Below, in pieces: positions 43,680 to 43,755 of a DNA stretch of 64,000 nucleotides (position 1 is the first letter of the stretch; the number at the start of each line of letters is the position of its first letter). Both the position numbers and the translations under genes were made by a program. The DNA is from Escherichia phage vB_EcoP_PW8: sequence record PQ362703.1; one strand, 5' to 3'. The notes under the pieces were generated by a model. The model was given only the letters and a program-made list of their open reading frames with translations, made no database searches and was not told the DNA's origin.

Positions 43680-43755
43680 TACCCGGTAGGCTTAGTGGTA
43701 AAGCCCCACTAGTAAACCAGCTAGGACGCAGGTTCGAATCCTGTCCGGGTAACCA
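43680..43755 (+). tRNA. tRNA or tRNA-like element with encoded CCA and non-canonical anticodon arm
   Basis: Perfect acceptor stem (TACCCGG/CCGGGTA), D arm (GGCT...AGCC), T arm (GCAGG-TTCGAAT-CCTGT), CCA at 43753-43755. The anticodon arm folds only as a 4-bp CTAG stem with an 8-nt loop. Manual fold. Confidence 0.45.

Follow-up and report, generated by a model that had tools for sequence, protein, structure and literature searches.

A phage-borne tRNA-like gene with a register-shifted hairpin in place of the anticodon arm, found in N4-like coliphages and other phages of Enterobacteriaceae

The tRNA genes of phages are usually explained by codon supply and, lately, by the replacement of tRNAs that host defences have destroyed. 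Non-decoding RNAs that mimic tRNAs are also familiar, and include the tRNA-like domain of tmRNA, YrlA, the vtRNAs of gammaherpesvirus-68 and the "tRNA-Other" of Bacillus cereus. Frameshift suppressors of the Salmonella sufD type and other tRNAs with 8-nt anticodon loops keep an in-register anticodon stem, U33, and a purine at position 37. An 8-nt anticodon loop has likewise been reported for yeast mitochondrial tRNA-Thr (PMC3113583). In tRNA-Pyl and mammalian mitochondrial tRNA-Ser(UCN), a 6-bp anticodon stem, which remains in register, is combined with a 7-nt loop and a single nucleotide between the acceptor and D stems, and both tRNAs decode (PMC7609411). In E. coli, several defence nucleases cut the anticodon arms of tRNAs and phages answer with tRNAs of their own; the tRNA-Lys of T5 counters PARIS (PMC11464382), a phage tRNA-Tyr counters Retron-Eco7 (PMC11555353), and anticodon-loop variants of phage tRNAs are set against tRNA-cleaving defences (PMC10264068).

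The gene described here is located at positions 43680–43755 (+) of a 64,000-nt stretch of the genome of Escherichia phage vB_EcoP_PW8 (PQ362703.1), which we refer to as the window. The phage belongs to the genus Gamaleyavirus (Schitoviridae) and is an N4-like coliphage. The gene, of 76 nt, lies in a ~2-kb stretch without convincing open reading frames (about 42113–44149) at the end of a rightward gene block. It is presumably on one transcript with a canonical tRNA-Ile(AAU), and this tRNA-containing transcript probably ends at a terminator-like hairpin, further downstream of which is the leftward virion RNA polymerase gene. The features are as follows, with the pieces of the tRNA-like RNA given in order from 5′ to 3′:

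43680–43686, + strand: 5′ strand of the acceptor stem, UACCCGG, forming 7 bp with 43745–43751 (Rfam alignment)
43687–43688, + strand: connector UA (U8 A9), invariant in 23 of 23 aligned relatives
43689–43705, + strand: D arm with a 5-bp stem, GGCUU/AAGCC, and a 7-nt loop, AGUGGUA, that holds A14 and G18 G19
43706–43708, + strand: connector that joins the D stem to the hairpin, CCA, 3 nt long (1 nt in a canonical tRNA)
43709–43724, + strand: register-shifted "anticodon" hairpin, CUAGU/GCUAG, with the 6-nt loop AAACCA
43725–43727, + strand: short variable region GAC, whose last base, C48, is the Levitt partner of G15 (43695)
43728–43744, + strand: T arm, GCAGG-UUCGAAU-CCUGU (Rfam alignment; 100% paired)
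[quoted passage not shown]
43752–43755, + strand: discriminator A73 and the encoded CCA (43753–43755), from the sequence
43761–43835, + strand: canonical tRNA-Ile(AAU), 5 nt downstream of the tRNA-like gene (ARAGORN; Rfam, 64.8 bits)
44071–44100, + strand: hairpin (44071–44092) and T run resembling an intrinsic terminator

The gene resembles a canonical elongator tRNA (RF00005) in its 7-bp acceptor stem, U8, A14, G18 G19, UUCGAAU T loop and Levitt pair, and it resembles canonical tRNAs, including those of phages, in its 76-nt length, its encoded CCA and its location in a phage tRNA cluster. A sequence-only reading of the window had described the acceptor, D and T arms as canonical and the CCA as encoded, and this was borne out by the sequence and the Rfam alignment. 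The tRNA body is complete: acceptor stem, T arm and Levitt pair are all present, as are the elbow nucleotides (U8, A14, G18, G19, U54, U55, C56, A58, and C61). The D-stem pair G10-C26 is found in 15 of 16 close relatives, and counting it lowers the energy of the cloverleaf from −23.4 to −26.7 kcal/mol. Unlike a canonical tRNA, however, the gene has neither a stem that pairs 27–31 with 39–43, nor a 7-nt loop bearing U33 and R37. In place of the anticodon arm there is a plain hairpin of four Watson-Crick pairs and a U·G pair (U34·G41), the 5′ strand of which begins at index 30 instead of 27 (3 nt late) and the 3′ strand of which ends at index 45 instead of 43 (a shift of 2 nt), followed by just 2–3 variable nucleotides. 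The 5-bp D stem, the 3-nt variable region and the 3-nt connector are further departures from the canonical plan, and a connector of this length is seen again in every lineage of the family. The overall length is canonical.

Programs that search for tRNAs detect this one, yet no anticodon can be assigned to it. Covariance scoring had been proposed as a check by the sequence-only reading; Rfam RF00005 matches 43680–43752 with 40.7 bits (gathering score 29; E = 3.7e-5 in the 64-kb window), and the tRNAscan-SE output for the relatives in UE phages is "tRNA-Undet-NNN" (PMC11927229). The RF00005 alignment passes over 18 nt (position 26 and the anticodon arm) by a local end, and it is because the arm is bypassed in this way that the score lies above the threshold. 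At default settings ARAGORN does not call the gene, its sole calls in the window being the tRNA-Ile(AAU) and an odd gene at 42821–42892, whereas at 95% of the threshold it reports a "tRNA-???" in which a stem of 5 bp carries a 6-nt loop and the "anticodon" has two bases. No tool found a standard cloverleaf with a 7-nt loop, the finding that had been named as speaking against a non-canonical anticodon arm, and the arm is indeed non-canonical. Since the gene scores above the RF00005 threshold and lacks the anticodon-arm feature, we have filed it as tRNA-like, and not as a tRNA.

Folding energies and pairing in the relatives agree on the position of the arm. In the canonical register (27–31/39–43), no pairs form in the window and 0–3% of cells are paired across the relatives, and the window gene has no loop of 7 nt that bears U33 and a purine at 37. 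A canonical-register arm gives −8.1 kcal/mol, compared with −26.7 kcal/mol for the shifted cloverleaf, i.e., the 5-bp D stem plus the shifted 5-bp hairpin. The minimum free energy (MFE) structure of the single sequence (−27.1 kcal/mol, z = −2.4) is not a cloverleaf; as the shifted cloverleaf lies within 0.4 kcal/mol of it, the MFE fold is uninformative as evidence when taken alone. The sequence-only reading had drawn the arm as a 4-bp stem with an 8-nt loop. Its CUAG/CUAG stem stands, but the arm is better described with a fifth pair that closes the loop to 6 nt; the 4-bp/8-nt version of the arm yields −21.4 kcal/mol versus −26.7 kcal/mol with the 5-bp shifted hairpin. This closing pair, 34:41, is U·G in the window and U-A in nine of the 11 Gamaleyavirus variants.

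The possibility that the gene is a frameshift-suppressor-type tRNA, which was raised on the basis of the 8-nt loop, fits poorly. The likeness to suppressors of the sufD type is that an enlarged loop is possible if the U·G opens, and an 8-nt loop would require the closing pair, be it U·G or U-A, to be open. The opened loop reads UAAACCAG, with an A at the U33 position, and no U33-type uridine stands ahead of the candidate anticodon. Unlike the 8-nt-loop suppressors, the gene has no in-register stem and no purine 37, and the loops of its relatives range from 3 to 9 nt, with the same body carrying loops of 3, 4, 5, 6, 7, and 9 nt of unrelated sequence. We conclude that a frameshift-suppressor role is unlikely. 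The gene resembles tRNA-Pyl and mammalian mitochondrial tRNA-Ser(UCN) in that the variable region is as short (3 nt) and the anticodon helix extends into positions 44–45 (PMC7609411); mitochondrial tRNA-Ser(UCN) also keeps G18 G19 and the T loop (PMC7609411). Unlike in those tRNAs, the 5′ strand of the hairpin starts late and the loop is not of 7 nt.

A blastn search with a 91-nt query region returned 35 phage records, and searches seeded with relatives added more. The family consists of 16 distinct close sequences in four lineages, together with the copies of NDO71, A73, phiEB49, and Phapecoctavirus, and its homologues are found in Gamaleyavirus, Kaypoctavirus, Enterobacter N4-like phages, Stephanstirmvirinae, Vequintavirinae and phiEB49. 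A family covariance model (R1) built from lineages A–D scores the close members at 64–105 bits, and a second tier of members scores well above most ordinary tRNAs (≤40 bits) while overlapping the two top tRNA-Ile genes (47.4 and 42.9 bits). The hairpins are:

Lineage A, Gamaleyavirus (11 distinct sequences): 5 bp with the loop AAACNA
Lineage B, Enterobacter N4-like phages SABI/SonariX and uncultured contigs: CCCAG-RACUUAAGA-CUGGG, with a 9-nt loop
Lineage C, Klebsiella KP8-like Kaypoctavirus: CAUAGC-AGGCAU-GUUAUG
Lineage D, Klebsiella phage 05F01 (Stephanstirmvirinae): CCCAA-GACUUAAGA-UUGGG
Lineage E, Klebsiella NDO71 (Vequintavirinae): CGCAGC-AGGCAU-GUUGCG
Escherichia phage A73 (R1, 56 bits): CACAAC-AUAUC-GUUGUG
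phiEB49 (R1, 53.5 bits): the same body with the 7-nt loop UUAACAA and a C·C mismatch in the stem, annotated as tRNA-Val
Phapecoctavirus copies (R1, 44–46 bits): CACAA-CUA/CUUA/UUUA-UUGUG

The hairpins of KP8 and NDO71 fold as 7 bp with a tetraloop, and the Phapecoctavirus element (399–471 of the loci) is a 5-bp hairpin with a 3–4-nt loop. Only lineages A and B are detected at the Rfam gathering threshold, and most relatives fall below both this score and the default threshold of ARAGORN. GenBank labels the gene in relatives as tRNA-OTHER, as tRNA-Thr or not at all, and across the family the annotations are inconsistent (tRNA-OTHER, Undet, Thr, Leu, Val, Gln, or missed); the Phapecoctavirus copy is without an RNA-gene annotation in almost all of the 40 records listed among the 67 matching E. 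coli myovirus records. As a consequence, published tRNA counts and anticodon assignments for these phage groups are unreliable. In the literature we found annotation-level mentions of the family and no paper on its function or structure.

These loops bear directly on the question of whether the RNA still takes part in translation. A synthetase indifferent to the anticodon might charge it, and it might read codons abnormally, be it as a quadruplet or +1 frameshift decoder (open 8-nt loop), a doublet decoder (6-nt loop), or a reader of UAA/UUA (9-nt-loop relatives), and we regard this as unlikely. The acceptor end, the T arm and the encoded CCA are intact; the phiEB49 relative, with its canonical 7-nt loop on the same body, is a tRNA-Val(AAC) for ARAGORN at default settings; and relaxed ARAGORN reads the 9-nt-loop relatives as "tRNA-Stop (UUA)". 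The loops of lineages B and D contain CUUAAGA, the canonical anticodon-loop motif C32-U33-UAA-G37-A38, and because of these loops and of phiEB49, some members may decode. Moreover, loop sequences are kept within lineages while the stems covary (AGGCAU in KP8 and NDO71; RACUUAAGA in SABI and 05F01), which suggests a specific importance of the loop for which a model based purely on the body does not account. However, the loop in the window, where the closing pair leaves 6 nt, lacks both a U33-like residue and a purine at the 37 position, and neither the tetraloops of KP8 and NDO71 nor the 3–4-nt loops of Phapecoctavirus can present an anticodon. Many loops of unrelated sequence and varied size on one body mean that there is no common codon to be read. 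The 3′ end is variable too, the discriminator being A or G (G73 in other lineages) and the CCA being replaced by UCA, UUA or CUCC in five of the 11 Gamaleyavirus variants and by ACCU or ACAU in Phapecoctavirus, and the gene shows no known anticodon-independent identity set, having neither G3:U70 nor a long variable arm. Since loops of 3–9 nt and members with 7 bp and a tetraloop cannot share a decoding role, a function common to the family should reside in the body.

That the body is maintained is apparent from two alignments, one of the 16 close sequences (A3; manual structural fit, padded with N) and one that adds the second tier to give 23 sequences (A4; fitted by hand, ~8 independent lineages), and the covariation support should be read as that of a few independent lineages in a hand-fitted alignment. 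In A3, 98.4% of cells are paired and 10 pairs are changed on both sides, compared with 22–57% pairing when the 3′ partners are slid by 1–3 columns; in A4, the figures are 95.1% and 13 pairs, with 27–54% in the slid controls. The helix of the shifted hairpin is 100% paired in A3 (n = 16; four of five common pairs double-changed) and 99.2% paired in A4 (n = 23; four of six pairs double-changed), with its top pair C:G in 23/23. The acceptor stem is 97–99% paired across the relatives, with 6/7 pairs double-changed, as are 2/5 pairs of the T stem (23 sequences). U8, A9, A14, G18, G19, U54, U55, C56, A58, and C61 are invariant in all 23 sequences. In the 16 close relatives, covariation is seen at the Levitt pair 15:48 (G:C in 11, A:U in four, G:U in one), with a double change even within Gamaleyavirus (CU10EC), and the pair is lost in the distant Phapecoctavirus branch. 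RNAalifold, run on an unfitted MAFFT alignment, also predicted a shifted hairpin at this place, along with the acceptor stem and the T arm of the RNA.

At the level of sequence, these comparisons show that the architecture has been kept by compensatory substitutions in several distinct Enterobacteriaceae phage groups, that the body of the gene is under purifying selection, and that the "anticodon arm" need only be a hairpin at a fixed, non-canonical position. The gene is neither a one-off nor a case of simple decay. The suggestion in the sequence-only reading that it could be a degenerate tRNA thus holds in the sense that the gene is not a normal decoder, but not in the sense of a gene in decay, given its compensatory stems and freedom from indels. 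Indeed, a tRNA pseudogene, i.e., a relic of a larger cluster that is recognisable merely because the genomes compared are close, seems to us quite improbable. In its favour, standard finders reject the gene, many close relatives lack it, the CCA has decayed in the five Gamaleyavirus variants mentioned above, there are signs of damage in some copies (G·U pairs and a T-loop change in VLCpiP4b; a 1:72 mismatch and no CCA in Phapecoctavirus), and a second aberrant tRNA-like gene lies in the same 2-kb region. Random decay should nevertheless break stems and produce indels, whereas pairing is kept in 95–98% of stem cells and none of the elbow nucleotides varies among the 23 sequences. Among the 11 Gamaleyavirus variants, 13 of 76 columns vary with no indels in the gene, and the variable stem positions stay paired (6:67 as G-C, G·U, or A-U; 49:65 as G·U or G-C; 34:41 as U-A or U·G). 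Mean identity within this genus is 95.0% for the tRNA-like gene and 95.6% for the neighbouring, functional tRNA-Ile, compared with 90.9% for the downstream 100 nt and mosaic flanks elsewhere, and the unusual architecture recurs in lineages whose flanks cannot be aligned.

The 1.5 kb around the gene match pSb-1, Bp4, ECBP1, St11Ph5, UE-S5a, and ~180 other records at 80–95% identity. The gene is accessory: ECBP1 is without a 290-bp segment that holds it, leaving a clean junction, and PD205 has neither the tRNA-like gene nor the tRNA-Ile. Every homologue lies within or beside a tRNA gene cluster, and no protein gene that travels with it is common to the lineages beyond N4-like synteny. The distribution is that of an accessory gene that has spread horizontally across podo-, myo-, and siphoviruses. 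The gene keeps to the interior or the border of tRNA clusters, being separated by 5 nt from the tRNA-Ile that follows it here and by 2 nt from the tRNA-Ile(GAU) that precedes it in Phapecoctavirus; this position and the terminator downstream might also be explained by a cis-acting processing or stability element, a "punctuation mark" for RNase P or 3′-trimming of the neighbouring RNAs. We consider such an element very unlikely: the adjacent tRNAs have processing signals of their own, the tRNA-Ile of ECBP1 exists without the element, and an acceptor/T minihelix would suffice for processing, but conservation extends to the D arm, to G18 G19 and to the Levitt pair.

The explanation that we prefer, tentatively and with somewhat less than even confidence, is that the product of the gene is a tRNA mimic: a conserved RNA of tRNA shape, carried by phages, which is not a normal decoder and acts through its body. 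Such an RNA would be cut from the transcript of the tRNA cluster by host RNase P, with 3′ trimming and CCA repair, would fold into the L-shape, and would act via its body without reading codons. As a guess, it could compete for a host factor that recognises the tRNA shape, for example as a decoy for anti-phage nucleases that target tRNA, or as a competitor that these cannot cleave; alternatively, the competition could be over a tRNA-modifying or charging enzyme. The sequence of the gene points to no particular nuclease or enzyme. A tRNA look-alike with a plain hairpin for an anticodon fits neither codon supply nor tRNA replacement. Were it to serve as a decoy or regulator, phages would have one more strategy, based on RNA, in their conflict with the host over tRNA.

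As a kind of RNA, a tRNA mimic is already known, and what appears to be new is a family with a shifted hairpin for the anticodon arm. The gene would share with the non-decoding mimics a tRNA-like acceptor/T/D module, tRNA-type processing and, in concept, a non-decoding use. Unlike them, it has no mRNA-like or Ro-binding module and no G3:U70, and the family is independent of the mimics listed above. With respect to tmRNA, ARAGORN finds none in the window, and the 3:70 pair is C-G in 22/23 relatives, not G3:U70; with respect to YrlA (RF02553), the best match has 15.6 bits against a gathering score of 69 (E = 7.1) and spans two adjacent genes.

The anti-defence tRNAs of phages invite a different comparison. 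These tRNAs are, like the gene described here, phage-borne, accessory and located in coliphage tRNA clusters, but they are functional decoders that replace cleaved host tRNAs, whereas the gene apparently cannot decode. Since it has no readable anticodon, it cannot be assigned an isoacceptor identity of the sort on which PARIS- and Retron-Eco7-type counter-defence is defined. An anticodon nuclease would not accept its altered anticodon region as a substrate, and as the RNA is apparently unable to decode, acting as a competitor or decoy would be its sole way to work against such defences.

A bolder version of the tRNA-mimic explanation, which we put forward as doubtful, is that the horizontally mobile, anticodon-less family is a dedicated counter-defence or host-takeover RNA that titrates or blocks a host protein recognising the body. 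Candidate targets would be immune nucleases that cleave tRNA and enzymes of the isoleucine-tRNA system, and the fast-changing tip of the hairpin would reflect an arms race. The idea of an isoleucine-system target comes from the repeated adjacency to tRNA-Ile genes, which the gene abuts in two lineages, and from the conservation in the body of C4-G69, C5-G68, U12-A23, and A73, which we take to be elements used by that system. The two best canonical matches of R1 are the tRNA-Ile genes that score 47.4 and 42.9 bits, whereas other tRNA-Ile genes score 28–29 bits, like all else. An isoleucine origin of the gene is therefore a lead, not a result. A duplication of the preceding tRNA-Gln, which shares U1-A72 with the gene, was also considered; listed side by side, the two show no obvious likeness beyond general tRNA features, and G2-C71 and G3-C70, presumably Gln identity elements, are absent from the gene.

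Searches outside the phages and for a hybridisation partner gave little. No bacterial family member appeared among the matches listed from a D-arm/T-arm pattern scan of GTDB genomes and metagenomes; these were mostly ordinary tRNAs, mainly CPR tRNA-Trp, that merely share UAGGCUUA. Two matches picked up solely through the common D-arm motif are otherwise regular tRNAs: one in a Komeilibacteria MAG contig (7917–7992), with an 8-nt loop and the 4-base anticodon AGCC, and one in a metagenome contig (1485–1560) of an uncultured CPR-type bacterium, with a 6-nt loop. A blastn search of all complete E. coli genomes for a host tRNA that might be mimicked gave no match at E ≤ 1, a weak negative for a 76-nt query in a 28-Gb database. 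As to an antisense target for the hairpin, the window holds only same-strand near-matches at chance level.

The surroundings of the gene provided several further observations. A ~210-bp segment directly upstream (43467–43676, +) ends in the hairpin GUUGUG-GGUAUCU-CACAAC (43646–43664); it is missing from UE-S5a, where the tRNA-like gene is present, and from most relatives, and is partly common to KKP3715 and E20. This patchy segment shows that the tRNA region is a mosaic hotspot. The neighbouring tRNA-Ile(AAU) has the anticodon nucleotide A34, which to our knowledge is unusual in bacteria and phages and essentially restricted to tRNA-Arg(ACG); AAU recurs in at least four other Gamaleyavirus genomes. 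The second aberrant tRNA-like gene of the window (42821–42892, +) is called tRNA-Ala(CGC) by ARAGORN. Its acceptor stem is of 8 bp and its D stem of 4 bp, with a D loop of 4 nt; the anticodon loop is GUCGCUA (CGC), the variable region has 3 nt, and there is no discriminator or CCA. In Rfam it falls below the tRNA gathering score and is nearest to tRNA-Sec (29.2 bits; gathering score 47), and its homologue in PD205 is annotated as tRNA-Pseudo-GCT. The KP8 tRNA cluster contains a further, unrelated tRNA-like gene (45–119 of the locus) with a 6-nt "anticodon" loop, annotated as tRNA-OTHER, and non-decoding tRNA look-alikes may therefore recur in such clusters. Finally, Escherichia phages 24-32N and Mimir124 carry genes annotated as anti-CRISPR in the region homologous to 42700–44200 of the window, which suggests that the tRNA region also serves as an island of accessory or counter-defence genes.
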